Assembly (NCBI GenBank): GCA_900320925.1 | Contig: ONUD01000069.1 | Location: 1-30,367 of the forward strand | Reading direction: 5' to 3' | Length of the DNA: 30,367 nt | From: an uncultured Eubacteriales bacterium | GTDB lineage: Bacteria > Bacillota > Clostridia > Oscillospirales > Acutalibacteraceae | Made by a program: the position numbers and the translations under genes | Shown: positions 11,863-20,423 of the stretch, piece by piece | Position numbering within the stretch: the first letter of the stretch is position 1 | Layout of the letters: every line of letters begins with the position of its first letter | Notes under the pieces: generated by a model | The model's database searches: none | Told to the model about the DNA's origin: nothing | Seen by the model: the letters and a program-made list of their open reading frames with translations, nothing else

Positions 11863-12456
11863 ATGAAATTACTGGTCAAAGCGGTTCTGTGCGGCTATTT
11901 CATTGCATGTCTGCTGTCCATGACGGGATTTTGCAGTATTTGCGGAAAGATACGGGAAGATGTGTTCCGCCTGCACATTATTGCCAACTCCGACAGTGCG
12001 GCGGATCAGGCACTGAAATACAAGGTGCGTGACGGCTTGCTGGCCTATACGTCAGTCCTGTTCCAAGACTGCCGTACCAGAGAGGAAGCCGTTGCCGCCG
12101 CCAAAAACAATACGGACAAGCTGCGTGCTTATGCACAGGAGCTTGTCCGTGAAAACGGTTCAGAGGATACGGTGGATGCCTATGTCACCGCCATGCCGTT
12201 CACGACACGGGTCTATGAAGAGTTCACCCTGCCGGCAGGAACCTATGATGCCCTGCGTATCGTCATCGGCAGGGGAGAGGGACACAACTGGTGGTGTGTC
12301 TTATATCCTGCCTTGTGCATTCCCACTGCACAGGGAAATCCGCTGGAAACACTCGACAGTTGTGAAACCGATGTCATGACCAACAGTGACGAATACGAAG
12401 TGAAGTTCAAGGTAGCCGAATTATGGGAAAGCCTTTGTTCATGGTTCCGACACTGA
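11863..12456 (+). CDS. spoIIR: Stage II sporulation protein R
   Basis: N-terminal signal, RLHIIANSDS..DQALKYKVRD, LPAGTYDALRIVIGRGEGHNWWCVLYPALC; AAGGAGG RBS. Confidence 0.95.
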   Translation: MKLLVKAVLCGYFIACLLSMTGFCSICGKIREDVFRLHIIANSDSAADQALKYKVRDGLLAYTSVLFQDCRTREEAVAAAKNNTDKLRAYAQELVRENGSEDTVDAYVTAMPFTTRVYEEFTLPAGTYDALRIVIGRGEGHNWWCVLYPALCIPTAQGNPLETLDSCETDVMTNSDEYEVKFKVAELWESLCSWFRH

Positions 12457-15400
12457 GCTGTCCCAGACACTGTAATTGGATTTTTGGTTTTTCTTGACGG
12501 CATAGAGTTTTGTATCGGCGTGCTTGAGGGCGATGTTCATAGAATCCTGATTATAGCTTGGTTCAGAAGCAATGCCAATCGAGCAGGAAACACGGTGGTT
12601 TTCGGGGATGTCAATTTTTTCTCCGACAGCGGACTGTATTTCCGCAATAAAGTGGTTGCTTTCGTCAATCGCCTTGTAGATGGCTTTGGCCAGTGCCACA
12701 CCTTCCTCGGTAGTATGCTCCGGCATGACAATCAGAAATTCATCGCCCCCGTAGCGGACAATGTAACCCTTGTTGGCAGTCACACGCTCGAACATTCTGG
12801 AAAAGGCAATCAATATTTCATCCCCCACATCATGGCCGAATGTATCATTGCAGAACTTGAAATTATCAAGGTCAATGTACAGCAGAGTGAAGCATACATC
12901 ACTGCGTTTGCCTTTCTGCACCATGCTGTCGTAATCATCAATCTTTTTGGCAAAGCCCTGCCGGTTCAGCAGGCCTGTCAGCAGGTCAGTTACCGCACTT
13001 TGCTGGAGTTTTTTGTTCATCTGGCTGATTTCGTCACGGGCTTTAAGACGGTAGAGCGTATCTGTCATCTGGCGGAGGGCAAACTTGAAGATGGTCAGGT
13101 CGTTCCTGTCAAGGAAGATAATGCCGCCTGTCATATTCTCGTGCATTTCGATGGAGGCAATCATGAAACCTGTCAGTTCATCGCCCTGTGAGAGCGGCAC
13201 GCAGGCAAAAGAAACAATATTGTTGACGCCAAACAAAGATAAAATAGAGGTATATTCATAGAATTCCCTGTCAAAGCGGTTAGCAACCACTTCTTTTTTA
13301 TGCTTGGTAAAGTAGGAGGTGATGTCCTCGAGCATTTCCTCATCAATGACCAGATCACTGCTGTTGTAGCGGATCACGGGCTTGCGGCGGACGACCTCCA
13401 CGTACAGAATGCTGTCAATATTGTAGTTGTTCTGCATAGTGGCCATGGAATTTTCGATAATATCATGAGCCGTTGCATTTTCCTTGTTCAGCAGTTCCTG
13501 CCATGCCACAAGGAAGTCAATGCCCTTGTTTCTGTCGGCAAGCATCATTTTCATTTCGGACTGCTGAGCCAGATCCTCGATCTGGTACTTGCTCACGGTT
13601 TTCAGCGGAAGAGGGATATGCTTTAAGATCAGGGACTGCTTGTGGAGCTTGGCAAACAGCATTTCCTCCTTATGCTTATAGCCGTTTTTATTGCAGAACT
13701 CCATGCAGGCTTCCAGCACTTCTTTTGCCATTTCGGGCTTGTTCTGGAGTTCATAGAGTTCCGCCTGTTCTGCGGCGAACATGGCATAGACAAAGAACAG
13801 CAAACCATCACTGCGGAACATATGGTATCTTGCCTTGTCAAAGTATTCCTGTGCTTTTTCAATGCTTTCGGACTTTTCAAGCAGTCCGCTGACAAAGTAG
13901 TAGAAAAACATATCATCGTCCCACAGGAAAAAGCGGTTTTCCGCATCGGAATGGATAATATGGTAAATAACCCGTTCCATCTTGTTGAGGTAGAAGTGGG
14001 CGTTGTATTCGATTCCCATGCGATAGCTGCAATAAACGATCATGCCGTACAGCTTAGAGAGGTTGCAGACTCTCATTCTCTGCTGTTTGATGGAGCGGAG
14101 CAGCTTGATGCAGTAAATCAGATAGTGGTAAGCGGTTTCACAGTTATCAGCCAGAATGGCATTCGTTGCCATATTATAGAGAGTTTCCGCCACGTAATAG
14201 GTATTTTTCTGCTGATAGAACAGGTCAAGAGCCTTGTTGAAGTAGTCGTTGGCAATAACGAACTGTTCACTTACAATGCGGTTGAAGCCCAGACCGTTGT
14301 AAATAGAAGCTTCTTCGGCAATATTGTTCTGCCCCTCAATAATCTCCAGACATTTTTTATAGTAATAGTCCACATAGCCGAAACAGCCGTAGCCCTGTGC
14401 CAGAAAGACATTTTTCATCCAAGCGGCAATCATCAGCCGTTCATTTTTCAGCATTTTCGCAATGCCCATCGCTTTTTTGAAGCTTTCCTGATCCTCGCAT
14501 TTAGCGGCATCGTCCATGAAATTTTCTTTCGCATTGCAGCAGCCGAACAGCAGGGTATGGGCTAAATGGTTGTACATTTTGTACTCCAACGCCTTTTTGA
14601 TAAAATCCTCGAGTTTTTCTCCCTCTGCGGTTCTGTCCCAGCGGTAGGAATTTGTCCAGCCGTCCAGCTTGCAGATATATTTCAGGAGCTGTGCCGTAAA
14701 GATATACCGCTGGGCACCGCTCTTCTGGGCGATTTTCATGCACTTCTCGGAATTTTTCTTGGCAAGGTTCGGCTGTCCGCCGTACACCTCGCACAGCGTC
14801 AGCAGATAGTGATAACGGAAGGTATAAATCATATTGGGGTGCTTGTTGTTGACATTCTTGAGTTTATCGCACATCATCAGTGCTGTTGTCAGGCTCATAT
14901 CATAGAGTGCCGCCGTGGCATAGAGGATATAGAACTTCGCACAGCTCTTGGCACTGAGATGGACTTTTTCGGTAATAATCTTGGTATAGACGATTTTCAG
15001 ATAATACATTGCCTGCTTGATGGCAAGTGTCTGGATCATGTTGTTAATCAGCAGGAGGTAGTGCGGGAACTCTGCCGCAAGGGGTTCAAAGCTCTCGGTA
15101 AGGTTGGCAGTTGTCTGGGCGTCCTGCATATTCCAGTCCAGCATATAGTTAAGATCCTCAATCTTTCTCACCAATTTTGTCCAGGTATCCGCCGTGTAGG
15201 AGGTCACGGAATAGGCTTCGTTGTAATTGGCAAGCAGGGAGATATTGGTATAATTTTTCTGGATAAATTCCAGCAGGAAATTCAGGGTAGAATTTTCGGC
15301 AATATGCAGTCGGTTCAGAACCAGCAAAAGGGTATGTTCTCTGGAGATATAGGAGAAAGTCTTGGCGAGGGAATCGGCAAACTGCTTTTTTTCGTATTCT

Positions 15401-15780
15401 GCTTCCACCACGATAATATCCTCACTGCGTCTGCATTCTCCCGTCATGATATAGCTTTCGATGGCAGAACGGCTCTGATAGTAGACATCCGCCTGTTCCA
15501 GAAAATCAGCGGCAGGCATCTTGAGGTAAAACTTGAAATAAAGCTGCTTGATCCAGCCCAGAAACGGTTCATAGGCTTCCTGCATACGGCTGGCACCGAA
15601 CTCATGGTACAGCAGTTCAATTTTACTGCTGCTCTGTGCAACAGCCGCCTGAATATCCTCTACAGGCACATTCAGGGTATTGTAATGCTTCACAAAGAGG
15701 ATACTGCTGTGTTTTTGTTCCAGACCGTGTATGATAGAATCCACGATTTTTCTGGTATACAGTTGCGAACAAGACTCCAT
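12439..15780 (-). CDS. Large diguanylate cyclase: degenerate STAND/AAA_16-like N-terminus, TPR region, GAF-like region, GGDEF domain
   Basis: C-terminal IDLDNFKFCNDTFGHDVGD and RYGGDEF are intact. TPR-like helices (YNGLGFNRI..FVIANDYFNKALDL..AETLYNMA). AGGAGG RBS. Confidence 0.85.
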   Translation of the reverse strand: MESCSQLYTRKIVDSIIHGLEQKHSSILFVKHYNTLNVPVEDIQAAVAQSSSKIELLYHEFGASRMQEAYEPFLGWIKQLYFKFYLKMPAADFLEQADVYYQSRSAIESYIMTGECRRSEDIIVVEAEYEKKQFADSLAKTFSYISREHTLLLVLNRLHIAENSTLNFLLEFIQKNYTNISLLANYNEAYSVTSYTADTWTKLVRKIEDLNYMLDWNMQDAQTTANLTESFEPLAAEFPHYLLLINNMIQTLAIKQAMYYLKIVYTKIITEKVHLSAKSCAKFYILYATAALYDMSLTTALMMCDKLKNVNNKHPNMIYTFRYHYLLTLCEVYGGQPNLAKKNSEKCMKIAQKSGAQRYIFTAQLLKYICKLDGWTNSYRWDRTAEGEKLEDFIKKALEYKMYNHLAHTLLFGCCNAKENFMDDAAKCEDQESFKKAMGIAKMLKNERLMIAAWMKNVFLAQGYGCFGYVDYYYKKCLEIIEGQNNIAEEASIYNGLGFNRIVSEQFVIANDYFNKALDLFYQQKNTYYVAETLYNMATNAILADNCETAYHYLIYCIKLLRSIKQQRMRVCNLSKLYGMIVYCSYRMGIEYNAHFYLNKMERVIYHIIHSDAENRFFLWDDDMFFYYFVSGLLEKSESIEKAQEYFDKARYHMFRSDGLLFFVYAMFAAEQAELYELQNKPEMAKEVLEACMEFCNKNGYKHKEEMLFAKLHKQSLILKHIPLPLKTVSKYQIEDLAQQSEMKMMLADRNKGIDFLVAWQELLNKENATAHDIIENSMATMQNNYNIDSILYVEVVRRKPVIRYNSSDLVIDEEMLEDITSYFTKHKKEVVANRFDREFYEYTSILSLFGVNNIVSFACVPLSQGDELTGFMIASIEMHENMTGGIIFLDRNDLTIFKFALRQMTDTLYRLKARDEISQMNKKLQQSAVTDLLTGLLNRQGFAKKIDDYDSMVQKGKRSDVCFTLLYIDLDNFKFCNDTFGHDVGDEILIAFSRMFERVTANKGYIVRYGGDEFLIVMPEHTTEEGVALAKAIYKAIDESNHFIAEIQSAVGEKIDIPENHRVSCSIGIASEPSYNQDSMNIALKHADTKLYAVKKNQKSNYSVWDSSVSEP

Positions 15781-15886: not shown

Positions 15887-16690
15887 TTATGAACGGTCAT
15901 AATTGGTATAGTGTCCGTATTCCCCTTTCAGGGCAAAATCTGCAATAAAAAATTCTTTCCCCTCCACGGAAAAATAATAGTACTGCACAGGGGTATCGTT
16001 CGTATAGGGTTCCTCTCCGATATAGACATTCACCTCTGACGGGTCAAGTCCTGTATCGGCAAACCGCTTTTTTTCCTTACGGAGATAGACGGCTTTGCGG
16101 TTCAGGCTTTTTCCTTCATTGATGTAGAATTCGTCATATTCATCATCCGCATCCACCCATTTTTGCTGGTGTATTTGATATCTGCCCAGCCGTTTTCCCT
16201 GACGGTCATAAAAGCCGAGATGGGAGTCCTTGAAGTATTGTCTGCTGTCAAAGTCGGCGATGATGGCTGACAGTTTCTCGGCAATGGTACGGGCATCGTT
16301 GGCTTCACACGTGACGTTGATGAAGTCAAAACTGTCCCCGTCATCTCTTTGGGCATGATACTCGCTGATGACATTGTCCAGTGCCGTGCGGCAGTGCTTG
16401 TACATTTCCTGTTTATATTGTGTACCGAAATCGCTTTTGGTATCCTCGACACTGCCGAAATCACTGCCGTCAATGAGGATCTTGTCCATCTCGCTGGCAA
16501 CATAGTAGGTAAAGCCGTATTCTTTGTCACGGAAGGTACACTTCCGCCCTGCCGACACTTCCTCTTCTGACAATAACTCACACGCTCCAAACTGCTGTTG
16601 TGCATAGCGGACGATTTGCTGTTCCGACTTCACTCTGCACGAACACAGGCATACCGCACATAACAGCAGTATCCACCATTTTTTCATCAT
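15887..16690 (-). CDS. Lipoprotein of unknown function
   Basis: MMKKWWILLLCAVCLCSC has a basic N-region, a hydrophobic H-region and lipobox L-C-S-C; GGAGG RBS before the ATG at 16690. Confidence 0.8.
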   Translation of the reverse strand: MMKKWWILLLCAVCLCSCRVKSEQQIVRYAQQQFGACELLSEEEVSAGRKCTFRDKEYGFTYYVASEMDKILIDGSDFGSVEDTKSDFGTQYKQEMYKHCRTALDNVISEYHAQRDDGDSFDFINVTCEANDARTIAEKLSAIIADFDSRQYFKDSHLGFYDRQGKRLGRYQIHQQKWVDADDEYDEFYINEGKSLNRKAVYLRKEKKRFADTGLDPSEVNVYIGEEPYTNDTPVQYYYFSVEGKEFFIADFALKGEYGHYTNYDRS

Positions 16691-16920
16691 ATGCACCTCC
16701 TGACTCTATTGTAATCTACTTCCATTGGTTTTGCAACCGTTGATTGCTCAAAAAAAAACTCCGTGTCCTGATTTTTGGCACGGAGTTTCTTTCTGTTGTA
16801 GGCTTTGGCATTTTTAGTGCATTTCGTGATGGGACTGATGTCCCACAAATGCCGTCGTGACTTGTTGAGCTGTTTTTGTTGTTTCTTGGAGAGCTTCTCA
16901 AAGGGAACAAATTTTTCCAT
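16687..16920 (-). CDS. Small Lys/Arg-rich protein; candidate ArfA/BrfA-like alternative ribosome rescue factor expressed from a non-stop mRNA
   Basis: MEKFVPFEKLSKKQQKQLNKSRRHLWDISPITKCTKNAKAYNRKK...; own consensus promoter, GAGG RBS and in-frame terminator. Coding status is well supported; the function is inference. Confidence 0.65.
   Translation of the reverse strand: MEKFVPFEKLSKKQQKQLNKSRRHLWDISPITKCTKNAKAYNRKKLRAKNQDTEFFFEQSTVAKPMEVDYNRVRRCI
16708..16736 (-). promoter_or_regulatory. sigma-A promoter for the lipoprotein gene, lying inside the 3' end of the 77-codon ORF
   Basis: TTGCAA-17 nt-TACAAT, followed by GGAGG and the ATG at 16690. Confidence 0.7.
16750..16788 (-). terminator. Intrinsic terminator located inside the coding sequence of the 77-aa ORF
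   Basis: Minus strand AAACTCCGTG-CCAAAAATCAGGA-CACGGAGTTT followed by a T run (T9 in total, 16758-16750); spans codons 45-57. Confidence 0.85.
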
Positions 16921-16953
16921 GCAATAACCTCTTTTCTTTTGAGTGATAAGAGC

Positions 16954-16981
16954 ATTATAGCACGATAGACGGGTTTGTCAA
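16954..16981 (-). promoter_or_regulatory. Consensus sigma-A promoter for the 77-aa ORF
   Basis: TTGACA-16 nt-TATAAT with an extended TG, starting immediately after the accA stop. Confidence 0.8.
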
Positions 16982-16982
16982 G

Positions 16983-17753
16983 TCAGAATTTACGGAAACG
17001 CTCATACCGCATTTCCACCAGTCTGTCAATCGGGATTCCTGCTTTTTTGGCAAAGGTCTGGGCAATGAGATTTTTCAGGCTGTCAAACAGCTTGCTGTCC
17101 ACGTCCTTGGGTTCACGGATGATTCTCTCAATCACGCCCATCTTGAACAGATCCTGTGAAGTGAGCTTCAGGCATTCCGAAGCTTCCGCGGTACGGCTGG
17201 CGTCTTTCCAGAGGATACTGGCACAGCCCTCGGGAGAAATGACCGAGTAGACGGCATTTTCCAGCATCCCTACTTCGTCAGCAACCGCCAGTGCCAATGC
17301 ACCGCCGCTGCCGCCCTCTCCGATGAAAATGGAGAGAACAGGAGTCTTGAGCGTCATCATTTCCATGAGATTCTCGGCAATTGCCTGTCCCTGTCCACGC
17401 TCCTCTGCACCGATCCCGCAGTAAGCTCCCGATGTATCCACAAAGCAGATGACAGGTCTGTGGAATTTTTCCGCCTGCTTCATCAGACGCAGGGCTTTGC
17501 GGTAGCCTTCGGGATGGGCAGAGCCGAAATTTCTTGCCATGCGTTCTTTCAGATTTCTTCCCTTTTCCAGGGCTATCACCGTCACAGCCATTCCATTCAG
17601 TTCCGCAATGCCGCCAATCACGGCCTTGTCATCGGAAAAACGCCTGTCACCGTGCAGTTCAAAGAAGCTGTCCCCGAAAATACGGGCAATATAGTCTACA
17701 GCCGTCGGTCTGTCATTGGCTCTTGCCGCCATGACGCAGTCATAGGCACTCAT
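16983..17753 (-). CDS. accA: Acetyl-CoA carboxylase carboxyltransferase alpha subunit
   Basis: ELHGDRRFSDD, PEGYRKALRLM, GEGGSGGALA, YSVISPEGCASILWK; start MSAYDCV at 17753. Confidence 0.95.
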   Translation of the reverse strand: MSAYDCVMAARANDRPTAVDYIARIFGDSFFELHGDRRFSDDKAVIGGIAELNGMAVTVIALEKGRNLKERMARNFGSAHPEGYRKALRLMKQAEKFHRPVICFVDTSGAYCGIGAEERGQGQAIAENLMEMMTLKTPVLSIFIGEGGSGGALALAVADEVGMLENAVYSVISPEGCASILWKDASRTAEASECLKLTSQDLFKMGVIERIIREPKDVDSKLFDSLKNLIAQTFAKKAGIPIDRLVEMRYERFRKF

Positions 17754-18633
17754 CACTGTCCGCCTCGCTTTCTGCATGAAGTTTCAGGAGTTTTGCCAGA
17801 GTATGCTTCATTTCGGCTCTGGGGACGACCGCATCAATGAATCCCTTTTCCAGCAAAAATTCTGCGGATTGGAAGTCTTTTGGCAGCTTCTGACGAATGG
17901 TCTGTTCAATGACCCTCGGACCCGCAAAGCCGATAAGAGCATGAGGCTCGGCAAGAATGATATCCCCCTCCATGGCAAAGCTGGCTGTCACGCCGCCCGT
18001 GGTGGGGTCCGTCAGAACGGTGATGTAGAGCAGTCCGCAGTCACTGTGAAGTTTGACGGCACCGCTGGTTTTCGCCATCTGCATCAGCGACAGGATTCCC
18101 TCCTGCATTCTGGCACCGCCTGAAACCGTGAAAATAATGACCGGCAGTCTGTGTTCTGCGGCATATTCAAAGGCACGGGTAATTTTCTCTCCCGTGACGG
18201 TTCCCATGGAACCCATCATAAACTGGGAATTCATCACGGCAATCACCGTTGTTTGGCCTTCAATTTGGGCTTTTCCCGTAATGACGGATTCATTTTCGCC
18301 GCTGTTGATTCTGGCATTCCGGAGTTTACGGGTATAATCCGGAAAATCAATGAGATTGGAGGAGGTCATGTCGGCATCAAATTCTTCAAACGTTCCCTTG
18401 TCCACCGTCATGTCGATACGCTGTCTGGCAGGGATACGGAAGTGATAGCTGCATTTCGGGCAGACCTTATAGTTGTCTGCCAAATCCGAGGACAGCACCA
18501 CATTCTTGCAGACGGGACATTTTACCCACAATTCATCAGGGATATACGGTTTATTGTCTTTTGCCTGTTCCTGACCCTCGAGTTCATTTTTAGGTTTCAG
18601 AAAGTTAAATAGATCTTTATTCAATGCCCCCAC
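17740..18633 (-). CDS. accD: Acetyl-CoA carboxylase carboxyltransferase beta subunit
   Basis: Zn finger CPVC...CPKC, MGSMG, SGGARMQEG, TTGGVTASFA, GFAGPRVIEQT. Start GTG 18633 (TTG 18624 alternative). Confidence 0.95.
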   Translation of the reverse strand: MGALNKDLFNFLKPKNELEGQEQAKDNKPYIPDELWVKCPVCKNVVLSSDLADNYKVCPKCSYHFRIPARQRIDMTVDKGTFEEFDADMTSSNLIDFPDYTRKLRNARINSGENESVITGKAQIEGQTTVIAVMNSQFMMGSMGTVTGEKITRAFEYAAEHRLPVIIFTVSGGARMQEGILSLMQMAKTSGAVKLHSDCGLLYITVLTDPTTGGVTASFAMEGDIILAEPHALIGFAGPRVIEQTIRQKLPKDFQSAEFLLEKGFIDAVVPRAEMKHTLAKLLKLHAESEADSDECL

Positions 18634-18636
18634 CCC

Positions 18637-19986
18637 TTACTGATGATTTTTTTCCTTGCGTTCTGCCATGAAGCCTGTTGTATAAGTACCCGACACAAAA
18701 GCAGGGTCGGAAAGAATGTCGATATGCAGGTCACGGTTATGCTTGATACCGTTGATGGTCAGTTCGCTGAGTGCCATTTTCATTTTACGGATAGCAAGCT
18801 CTCTGGAACGAGCCTGCACAATCAGCTTGCCAATCATGGAGTCATAGTAGGGAGGAATTTCATAATCCTGATAGATTGCGGTGTCGAACCGTACACAAGG
18901 GCCTCCGGGGACGTGAATAAACTCGATTCTGCCGCAGCCCGGGCGGAAGTCATTGTCAGGATCCTCGGCATTGATACGGCATTCAATGGCATTGCCGTGC
19001 ATAAAGACCCTGTCTTGCGTAATGGTCAGCTTGGAGCCGGAGGCAATGCGAATCTGCCACTGTACAATGTCCAGTCCCGTCACCATTTCTGTCACAGGAT
19101 GTTCCACCTGCAAACGGGTATTCATTTCCATAAAGTAAAAATTCTTATCTGCATCCAATAAAAACTCCACCGTACCCGCATTTTCATAATTGACAGCTTT
19201 GGCAGCCTTGACGGCCGCTTCCATCATTTTTTTCCGAATATCAGGGGTAATGGCAGGAGAGGGACTTTCTTCTATCAGCTTCTGATTTTTCCGCTGCACC
19301 GAGCATTCCCGTTCCCCCAGACATACGACATTGCCGTATTTATCTGCAAGGAGCTGCATTTCGATATGCTTCACGGGAGACAGAAATTTTTCCATATACA
19401 CTGCCCCATCACCGAACGCACTTTGTGCTTCCGCCTTGGCAGAGAGGAAGGCATTGTCAAAGTCCTCGATTTTGTCCACCCGTCTGATGCCTCTGCCGCC
19501 GCCGCCGGAGCGTGCCTTCACAAGCAGCGGAAAGCCGATTTCTGCCGCCTTTTCTCTGGCACTGTCGATATCATCAATGACATCACTGCCCGGGGTCACG
19601 GGTACACCGGCTTCACGCATGGTTTTTCTTGCTTCATCCTTGTCGCCCAGCCGCTCGATCATACGGGAGGACGGACCGATAAATTCGATATTGCACTGCT
19701 CACACAAAGAAACAAACTTGGCATTTTCCGATAATAATCCATATCCCGGGTGAATGGCCTGAGCCCCCGAAACCACTGCCACCTCTAAGATTGCTGCCAT
19801 ATTCAGATAGCTGTCAGCGACCTGAGCCCCCCCGATGCAGTAGCTTTCATCTGCCATGCTGACGTGCAGGGCATTTTTATCTGCCTGTGAGTAGACCGCA
19901 ACGGTCGCAATGCCCATCTCACGGCAGGCACGGATGATTCTGACAGCGATTTCTCCACGATTGGCGATCAATATCTTTGAAAACAT
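18637..19986 (-). CDS. accC: Biotin carboxylase
   Basis: ILIANRGEIAVR, HPGYGLLSEN, GGGGRG, EMNTRLQVEHPVTE; start MFSKIL at 19986. Confidence 0.96.
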   Translation of the reverse strand: MFSKILIANRGEIAVRIIRACREMGIATVAVYSQADKNALHVSMADESYCIGGAQVADSYLNMAAILEVAVVSGAQAIHPGYGLLSENAKFVSLCEQCNIEFIGPSSRMIERLGDKDEARKTMREAGVPVTPGSDVIDDIDSAREKAAEIGFPLLVKARSGGGGRGIRRVDKIEDFDNAFLSAKAEAQSAFGDGAVYMEKFLSPVKHIEMQLLADKYGNVVCLGERECSVQRKNQKLIEESPSPAITPDIRKKMMEAAVKAAKAVNYENAGTVEFLLDADKNFYFMEMNTRLQVEHPVTEMVTGLDIVQWQIRIASGSKLTITQDRVFMHGNAIECRINAEDPDNDFRPGCGRIEFIHVPGGPCVRFDTAIYQDYEIPPYYDSMIGKLIVQARSRELAIRKMKMALSELTINGIKHNRDLHIDILSDPAFVSGTYTTGFMAERKEKNHQ

Positions 19987-19991
19987 GGCCT

Positions 19992-20423
19992 TCAACCTTT
20001 CTGCTCTCTCGGAAGGAGTGCAAAGGAAAATTCTGCCGATACCGCCAGTTTGCCGTTGACATAGCCCTTGCCGGTGATGAAGTAGAAGCGTTCACGGCGG
20101 ATGTCTGTCAGTTCACACTTGATATCCAGTGTATCCCCAGGCAGCACCTTGCTTTTGAATTTGGCTTTTTCAATGCCCGTAAAGTAGGGGGTGCTGACGG
20201 CAGATACCTCTGCAATAATGACAGAGCTTGCCTGTGCCATCATTTCGCACAAAATAACGCCCGGTACCACGGGATTGCCGGGGAAATGTCCGTCCAGGAA
20301 CCACTCGTCCCCTTTGATATATTTTTTTCCCTCACAGGTTTTCTCGGAGGTTTTGGTTGCTTCGTCAATCAGAAGCATGGAATTTCTGTGGGGAATGACA
20401 TTTTTCAGTTCTTCTTTGTTCAT
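19992..20423 (-). CDS. fabZ: 3-hydroxyacyl-ACP dehydratase
   Basis: IPHR..MLLID and GHFPGNPVVPGVILCEMMAQ (catalytic His/Glu). Confidence 0.92.
   Translation of the reverse strand: MNKEELKNVIPHRNSMLLIDEATKTSEKTCEGKKYIKGDEWFLDGHFPGNPVVPGVILCEMMAQASSVIIAEVSAVSTPYFTGIEKAKFKSKVLPGDTLDIKCELTDIRRERFYFITGKGYVNGKLAVSAEFSFALLPREQKG

Follow-up and report, generated by a model that had tools for sequence, protein, structure and literature searches.

In the 30,367-nt stretch of contig ONUD01000069.1 analysed here (the window), which belongs to an uncultured Eubacteriales bacterium of the family Acutalibacteraceae, a 77-codon open reading frame (ORF) on the minus strand encodes a small basic protein and runs through an intrinsic transcription terminator, and its main transcript is predicted to carry no stop codon. 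An earlier note on this DNA had proposed that the product is a clostridial back-up ribosome rescue factor of the ArfA/BrfA type. The underlying observation was upheld in the window and in relatives from ~100 other genomes: the gene belongs to a family, it forms a unit of its own, its in-frame terminator is conserved and the tail behind the terminator is not, and transfer-messenger RNA (tmRNA) and SmpB are encoded in the same genome. On the other hand, the recruitment of a release factor (RF) stays an analogy, and the protein has no detectable similarity to ArfA or BrfA. Thus we regard tmRNA-gated non-stop expression of the small gene as very likely, and the full reading of its product as a ribosome rescue factor as plausible but tentative. 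The design principle has precedents in arfA and brfA, whereas the protein family, with its lineage and its size, is new.

All the sequence elements from which the proposal had been built were recovered in the window at the positions described (Table 1). The consensus promoter of the small gene scores 12/12 and begins 2 nt after the stop codon of the upstream gene accA, and the ribosome-binding site (RBS) lies 7 nt upstream of the ATG. Lys and Arg abound in the first ~50 residues, as had been claimed (16 of 50), and residues 1 to ~58 have a net charge of about +11. The stem of the terminator is followed directly by nine T, and the TGA stop lies 20 codons past F57, in agreement with the description of an in-frame terminator with a U9 tract ~20 codons before the stop. 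Folded together with its flanking A/U pairs, the hairpin reaches -26.2 kcal/mol (z = -8.9), an energy that none of 200 shuffled sequences equalled; a simple terminator scanner missed it owing to its loop and bulge limits.

The terminator was then followed through the nearest-loci set (n = 81; the 80 best homologous loci plus the window). A strong hairpin was present inside the ORF in 81/81 loci, ending at a median of 173 nt from the ATG (interquartile range 171-176), i.e., at codon ~58, and such recurrence at one codon position goes well beyond chance. Fold energies had z below -3 versus shuffles in 78/81 loci, and the T-tract right after the stem (8-nt window) held at least six T in 63/81 and at least five T in 74/81. 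An in-frame stop before the last G-C pair of the hairpin was found in 0/81 loci; the stop is located more than 15 nt past the stem in 66 loci, 10-15 nt past it in eight and 2-9 nt past it in seven. When the 5' arms were aligned by reading frame alone (positions counted from the invariant Tyr codon), 5'-arm positions 12-21 were paired in 73-80 of the 81 loci each with two to five types of Watson-Crick pair (for example, G-C in 49 and A-U in 24 loci at one position; A-U in 57, C-G in 13 and G-C in seven at another). The RNAalifold pair table also contains double changes, while the MAFFT-based RNAalifold consensus gave seven pairs only, loop lengths being different among loci. In an independent sample from an order-wide search, the ORF-internal hairpin was found in 24-28 of 33 stronger and in 4 of 19 weaker matches. 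Moreover, distant members from other orders (L089, L090 and L092) have an ORF-internal terminator at the same place with unrelated stem sequences. By sequence comparison, the position of the terminator within the frame is conserved, with compensatory changes, across many families of the order. The U-tract is interrupted in about a fifth of the loci. One locus (L106, G298:C40) and the L020-L026 group combine a long, strong ORF-internal hairpin with an interrupted or weak U-tract; by analogy with E. coli arfA, truncation in these might need a nuclease such as RNase III and not termination.

The protein is conserved as far as the hairpin. The consensus of its first ~46 residues is MEKF[VI]P[FY]EKLSKKxQRELNxxKRxxWGxxNPVTRxPENPKAYNRKKA, with nine invariant columns (M1, F4, K9, R23, W26, P30, Y41, R43 and K45). 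Pairwise protein identity was 0.71-0.73 in the core, 0.30 in the hairpin-encoded part and 0.08, equal to the random level, in the tail; the expectation that homologues keep the in-frame terminator while the tail varies was thus borne out for the major clade. Entropy at the three codon positions was 0.59, 0.47 and 1.21, respectively, the third being twice positions 1 and 2; therefore the protein, and not the RNA alone, is under purifying selection. The AlphaFold2 model (pLDDT 70) has one confident helix (residues 12-23), with the remainder predicted as disordered. Past the hairpin, a stop codon appears in the ORF frame as soon as in the other two frames (median distances 31, 80 and 42 nt), and the tail therefore behaves as untranslated sequence. 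The length of the ORF to its first stop ranges from 57 to 432 aa across loci, the longest running into neighbouring genes. Open ORFs of 432, 212 and 353 codons (L041, L061 and L070, respectively; also L023 and L075) extend in frame into neighbouring sequence or genes. Annotators should be aware that gene callers assign arbitrary C-termini within this range to the family and sometimes fuse it with the next gene.

The small gene also appears to be independent of its surroundings. A promoter match of at least 9/12 was located 25-45 nt upstream of the ATG in 56/81 homologous loci, and a GGAGG-type RBS was present in nearly all. No flanking gene family was shared by more than 5/81 loci: the 138 nearest neighbours comprise 112 Pfam families of ordinary housekeeping kinds, and among these neighbours there were no integrases and no enriched partner. 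A stand-alone unit consisting of promoter, RBS, ORF and ORF-internal terminator is strongly supported.

RNA data from the rumen are consistent with this layout. Metatranscriptome contigs from four rumen or bovine-gut runs (three studies) match the window at an identity of at least 99% and lead without a break from accA across the promoter into the small ORF, where they end at 16799, 16806, 16820 and 16868, i.e., 14-83 nt upstream of the GC core of the hairpin (16785..16759) and 4-73 nt upstream of the extended stem foot (16795). No RNA contig covered 16455-16795 in the four runs, and one run resumes only at 16300-16445, inside the downstream gene. RNA coverage usually declines toward the 3' end and hairpins are poorly read; the contig ends fit termination at the hairpin and provide modest support for it. 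Transcripts of accA may run into the small ORF, and read-through from the acc genes could share its terminator.

Three independent searches returned 49 clusters at 90% identity, matches in 323 GTDB species genomes and, among 1.8 billion representatives, 2,234 clusters at 50% identity (E<=1e-10 for 1,248 of these); the count of 2,234 is probably inflated by the variable tails. By title, the best loci are from Oscillospiraceae, Acutalibacteraceae and Ruminococcaceae, mostly from rumen and gut metagenome-assembled genomes (MAGs), with a few isolates in addition. Among 401 evenly sampled genomes of Oscillospirales the family was present in 46, representing 15 of 26 families, and among ~380 sampled genomes of other orders of class Clostridia it was present in four. 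The window genome has one copy, while several genomes have two or three (three in G209; two each in G353, G375, G176 and G228); JAEEZZ, JAZUFU, JAZUHE and CACYLY are also multi-copy (L020/L050, L022/L061, L056/L069 and L031/L068, respectively). Three typical members (L030, L039 and L063) are located on MAGs named Terriglobales, Candidatus Acidoferrum and Selenomonadales, and a locus that genome search placed in the window's order (L125, G242) encodes the same protein as L030. The members named Acidobacteriota or Selenomonadales are likely to be mis-binned contigs or naming conflicts and not gene transfer.

Catalogue searches returned no name for the family. The window protein and members matched no Pfam (E<=1, 44 members), NCBIfam (E<=10) or PHROGs family; the ESM atlas returned unnamed clusters only; Foldseek of the AlphaFold2 model found no match in the PDB; and a profile search of the PDB returned EMC10 alone (E 0.08), judged a chance match. 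DUF7230 (PF23876), to which a low hit in the atlas had pointed, was rejected as an identity: no family member matches it, and it was found neither in 300 Clostridia genomes nor in control genomes. The 58-aa core had no match in phage and plasmid collections; nothing obvious therefore marks the type with an ORF-internal terminator as mobile.

Trans-translation, a nearly universal process, is also a drug target. The window genome, itself a MAG, encodes tmRNA with the tag peptide DNNQFVALAA, adjoining smpB, as well as RqcH and two ORFs with an RF-1 domain (367 and 381 aa), identified as RF1 and RF2; no ArfB-sized RF-1-domain ORF was found in this 82% complete genome, and the window protein itself contains no RF-1 domain of the ArfB GGQ peptidyl-hydrolase type. 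Firmicutes are described as lacking ArfB, with ArfA and BrfA restricted to some proteobacteria and ~10 species of the B. subtilis group, and RqcH occurs in >90% of Firmicutes (PMC11633108, PMC6514570). The literature searched contained no mention of such a rescue factor in Clostridia.

We propose a rescue function because of the non-stop design and the basic composition, and the circuit might operate as follows. The gene's own strong promoter and RBS would yield a ~210-nt monocistronic transcript ending at the in-frame terminator at codon ~58, and on this main mRNA, which would have no stop codon, ribosomes would run to the 3' end and stall. While trans-translation works, tmRNA-SmpB would tag the nascent peptide of ~58-60 aa for proteolysis and little protein would accumulate; with the system overloaded or lost, the basic peptide would go untagged and build up, and it could then occupy the empty mRNA channel and the A site of non-stop ribosomes, as ArfA and BrfA do. 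Its Lys/Arg-rich C-terminal half (NPKAYNRKKARKW) would be the binding part and its N-terminal helix a second contact, and the ribosome-bound peptide would recruit a class I release factor, leading to peptidyl-tRNA hydrolysis. The steps that we infer are that termination is efficient in vivo, that the peptide is tagged and turned over, that it binds the ribosome and that it recruits a release factor.

Several traits link the family to BrfA (YqkK), the RF2-dependent factor of B. subtilis (PMC6881298, PDB 6SZS): i) both are small basic proteins encoded by stand-alone genes of Firmicutes; ii) both genes have a rho-independent terminator within the coding region, giving an mRNA without a stop in brfA (62 of 71 codons included) and, by prediction, in the window gene (~58-60 of 77); iii) both proteins have an N-terminal helix and a basic, disordered C-terminal half; iv) both have a narrow, patchy phyletic range, with tmRNA and RqcH alongside. 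The brfA product was detected only in an smpB mutant (PMC6881298). However, the new family has no detectable sequence similarity to BrfA, whose conserved residues include Arg25 and the K49-H50 motif, and it has no Lys-His motif; it is located in Oscillospirales (class Clostridia) and not in Bacillus; and it is much larger (~2,200 clusters), with stop-bearing paralogues.

With ArfA (YhdL, PF03889), the RF2-dependent factor of E. coli, the family shares a non-stop mRNA made via a hairpin in the ORF, such truncation being predicted from the nucleotide sequence for the window and 81/81 nearest loci. The active form of ArfA is cut at ~55 aa with a dispensable tail, comparable to the ~58-aa core of the new family, and ArfA is regulated by tmRNA tagging, the same regulation as proposed here by analogy. 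The ArfA motif KGKGSYMRK given in the earlier note is indeed present in the E. coli protein, and the likeness of the family to ArfA is limited to a short basic C-terminal K-x-Y-x-R-K stretch centred on a Tyr (KGSYMRKGK in ArfA versus PKAYNRKKA). No homology to ArfA, BrfA or ArfT was detected. RNase III cleavage helps to truncate arfA, whereas most loci of the new family have a canonical terminator as their hairpin; ArfA is also proteobacterial and without a structured N-terminal helix. ArfT of Francisella tularensis (KGG-repeat family) is also a small charged helical protein and brings RF1 or RF2 to ribosomes stalled without a stop codon (PMC6514570), but it belongs to an unrelated family, for which programmed non-stop mRNA is not described; in the Pfam scan at E<=1 the new family matched neither a KGG-repeat family nor any other.

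A number of findings weigh against a rescue factor made from non-stop mRNA. In a family-profile search of all PDB chains at E<=10, no ArfA or BrfA chain was returned, though that database includes the BrfA structure 6SZS; aligning the family profile with E. coli ArfA by hhalign gave a probability of 0.8%; PF03889 (ArfA) was not matched at E<=1 by the window protein or 44 members; and the Lys-His motif common to ArfA and BrfA (PMC6881298) is absent, with no conserved His in the family. The RNA contigs are of low depth and assembled, without strand or exact 3' ends. In the seven loci whose stop follows the stem by only 2-9 nt, the transcript may include the stop. The family is patchy within its order, and its carriers also have RqcH, so that a back-up factor is not obviously needed.

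Further weight on this side comes from a divergent subfamily of 52-61 aa that ends at an ordinary stop and has no internal terminator (typical sequence M.Q.VPLxKxSKKAQREYHAKQRGSW.G..PVTR.V...KxYDRxR...; a normal terminator sometimes follows the stop). Its existence means that the protein as such does not need non-stop expression. The earlier note had named homologues with a stop before the hairpin as evidence against its proposal; this objection applies in part, to the subfamily with its ordinary stop and no internal terminator, and not to the 81 nearest loci. On the other hand, the length of these relatives equals that of the predicted run-off product of the non-stop type, which supports a functional protein of ~58 aa. 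The non-stop trait is clustered on the tree, with six changes versus 17.8 in shuffles and 0/500 shuffles as low, the tree being built from the 46 columns upstream of the hairpin and poorly resolved. The predicted non-stop design is a mark of the major clade and not of the whole superfamily.

The stop-bearing genes are part of a cassette (L110:3525-3701, minus strand, and equivalents in L111-L122; 52-60 aa; genomes G176, G228, G311, G329, G297, G324, G209, G375, G084 and G121). A divergent HTH_3 (XRE/Cro-type) regulator was present in 10/13 loci, and on the same strand a 128-aa ORF lies upstream and an ORF of 125-149 aa downstream. Most cassette neighbours have no Pfam family, and the look-alikes of the 125-aa ORF in the ESM atlas are viral hypothetical proteins. 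This cassette probably represents a prophage or a mobile element of another kind, and given its XRE regulator and virus-like genes the role of the superfamily need not be rescue. None of the cassette genes was found beside the non-stop type. Both types occur together in two genomes (G209 and G375).

These findings leave room for an alternative in which the same non-stop, tmRNA-gated expression serves another effector, such as a peptide that silences ribosomes or acts in a hibernation-like way, a stress regulator that binds RNA or DNA, or a toxin-like peptide that arrests growth. All the evidence on non-stop architecture fits such an effector equally, as do the missing homology to ArfA and BrfA, the missing Lys-His motif and the back-up that carriers already have in RqcH, and the cassette of the stop-bearing paralogues hints at mobile-element biology, not housekeeping rescue. 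Yet the known products of programmed non-stop mRNAs are rescue factors only (PMC6881298, PMC8012679), the feedback logic is best suited to a back-up rescue factor, and the protein resembles ArfA and BrfA in size, charge and disorder, with the short K-x-Y-x-R-K likeness to the ArfA tail in addition; we therefore consider another effector rather unlikely. It is improbable that the product is an ordinary small basic protein whose terminator slid into a dispensable 3' end, with read-through or translation-coupled suppression of the hairpin supplying enough stop-containing mRNA: the hairpin keeps its place at codon ~58 in many families of the order, and its stem shows compensatory changes; none of the 81 loci has a stop before it, whereas the third frame has stops there in 67/103 loci; the tails, 0 to >370 codons long and of random-level identity, would make the read-through product different in every species; and no RNA contig extends beyond the hairpin in the four runs. 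What can be said for an ordinary protein is that relatives of about equal length have ordinary stops, that the stop is within 15 nt of the stem in 15/81 loci and that a fraction of the U-tracts is interrupted.

An ORF across a terminator is also the layout of a pyrBI-type translation-coupled attenuator, and in the window the stop codon of the small ORF overlaps the ATG of the downstream lipoprotein-like gene. Nevertheless, a leader peptide or attenuator of the downstream gene, or a non-coding or dual-function small RNA with an incidental ORF, is highly improbable. The downstream genes are unrelated among loci, as the counts of shared neighbours above indicate, and the one in the window has promoter-like sites of its own; a stretch of 46 aa is conserved, and its codon positions show a clear coding signature; and no Rfam family matches, the sub-threshold hit to FuFi-1 (E 0.59) being taken as noise. 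Since neighbours are not conserved, the leader peptide of a particular operon is excluded, and the leader or attenuator reading was rejected.

Extended to the whole superfamily, the rescue-factor reading would describe an independently evolved RF-recruiting rescue family in gut Clostridia, after ArfA, BrfA and ArfT, with a tmRNA-gated major clade and with stop-bearing paralogues in prophage-like cassettes as rescue factors that mobile elements carry for themselves; we hold this wider picture to be possible, if somewhat speculative. For the back-up of tmRNA outside proteobacteria and Bacillus, a large family in abundant gut and rumen Clostridia offers a concrete and easily tested candidate. If the rescue function is true, it would i) represent a further independent invention of the non-stop feedback circuit; ii) provide a new ribosome-binding peptide for structural work; and iii) validate a sequence-only route of discovery, by way of a conserved ORF that runs into a conserved terminator. 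Taken with stop-less small genes of other families, the wider picture would also mean that tmRNA back-up systems of Gram-positive bacteria can be searched for in general by a terminator lying within an ORF.

Table 1. Positions of the small gene, its parts and the neighbouring genes in the window.
Feature	Position	Strand	Remarks
Promoter, sigma-70 type (TTGACA, 16-nt spacer with TG, TATAAT)	16954..16981	-	12/12 match; TTGACA 16981..16976, TG 16962..16961, TATAAT 16959..16954
Shine-Dalgarno sequence AAGAGG	16928..16933	-	GGAGG or AGGAG at the same place in nearly all homologous loci
Small ORF, 77 codons	16920..16687	-	ATG at 16920
Conserved coding part, codons 1-45	16786..16920	-	MEKFVPFEKLSKK...NAKAYNRKK; presumed functional core of the protein
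Intrinsic terminator in the ORF, codons 42-57	16749..16795	-	GC stem, A/U pairs and U9
GC stem, codons 45-54	16785..16779 and 16765..16759	-	CTCCGTG pairs with CACGGAG
T9 tract	16758..16750	-	read as F55-F57
ORF tail past the terminator, codons 58-77 and TGA	16687..16748	-	unconserved; probably missing from most transcripts
TGA stop codon	16689..16687	-	
Weak promoter-like sites	16736..16708 and 16715..16686	-	9/12; between terminator and lipoprotein-like gene
Downstream putative lipoprotein gene	15887..16696	-	signal peptide ending LLLCAVCLCSC; outside the small-gene unit
Gene for a 1113-aa protein	12439-15780	-	C-terminal GGDEF motif RYGGDEFLIV; long N-terminal repeat-like region
accA (acetyl-CoA carboxylase carboxyltransferase alpha)	16983..17777	-	PF03255, E 1e-111; upstream housekeeping gene
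accD	17740..18633	-	
accC	18637..19995	-	

On the upstream side of the small gene, accA, accD and accC form an acetyl-CoA carboxylase cluster (16983-19995). On the downstream side, the lipoprotein-like gene is probably transcribed from a separate promoter that lies in the unused tail of the small ORF, and the GGDEF protein encoded beyond it is a putative diguanylate cyclase.

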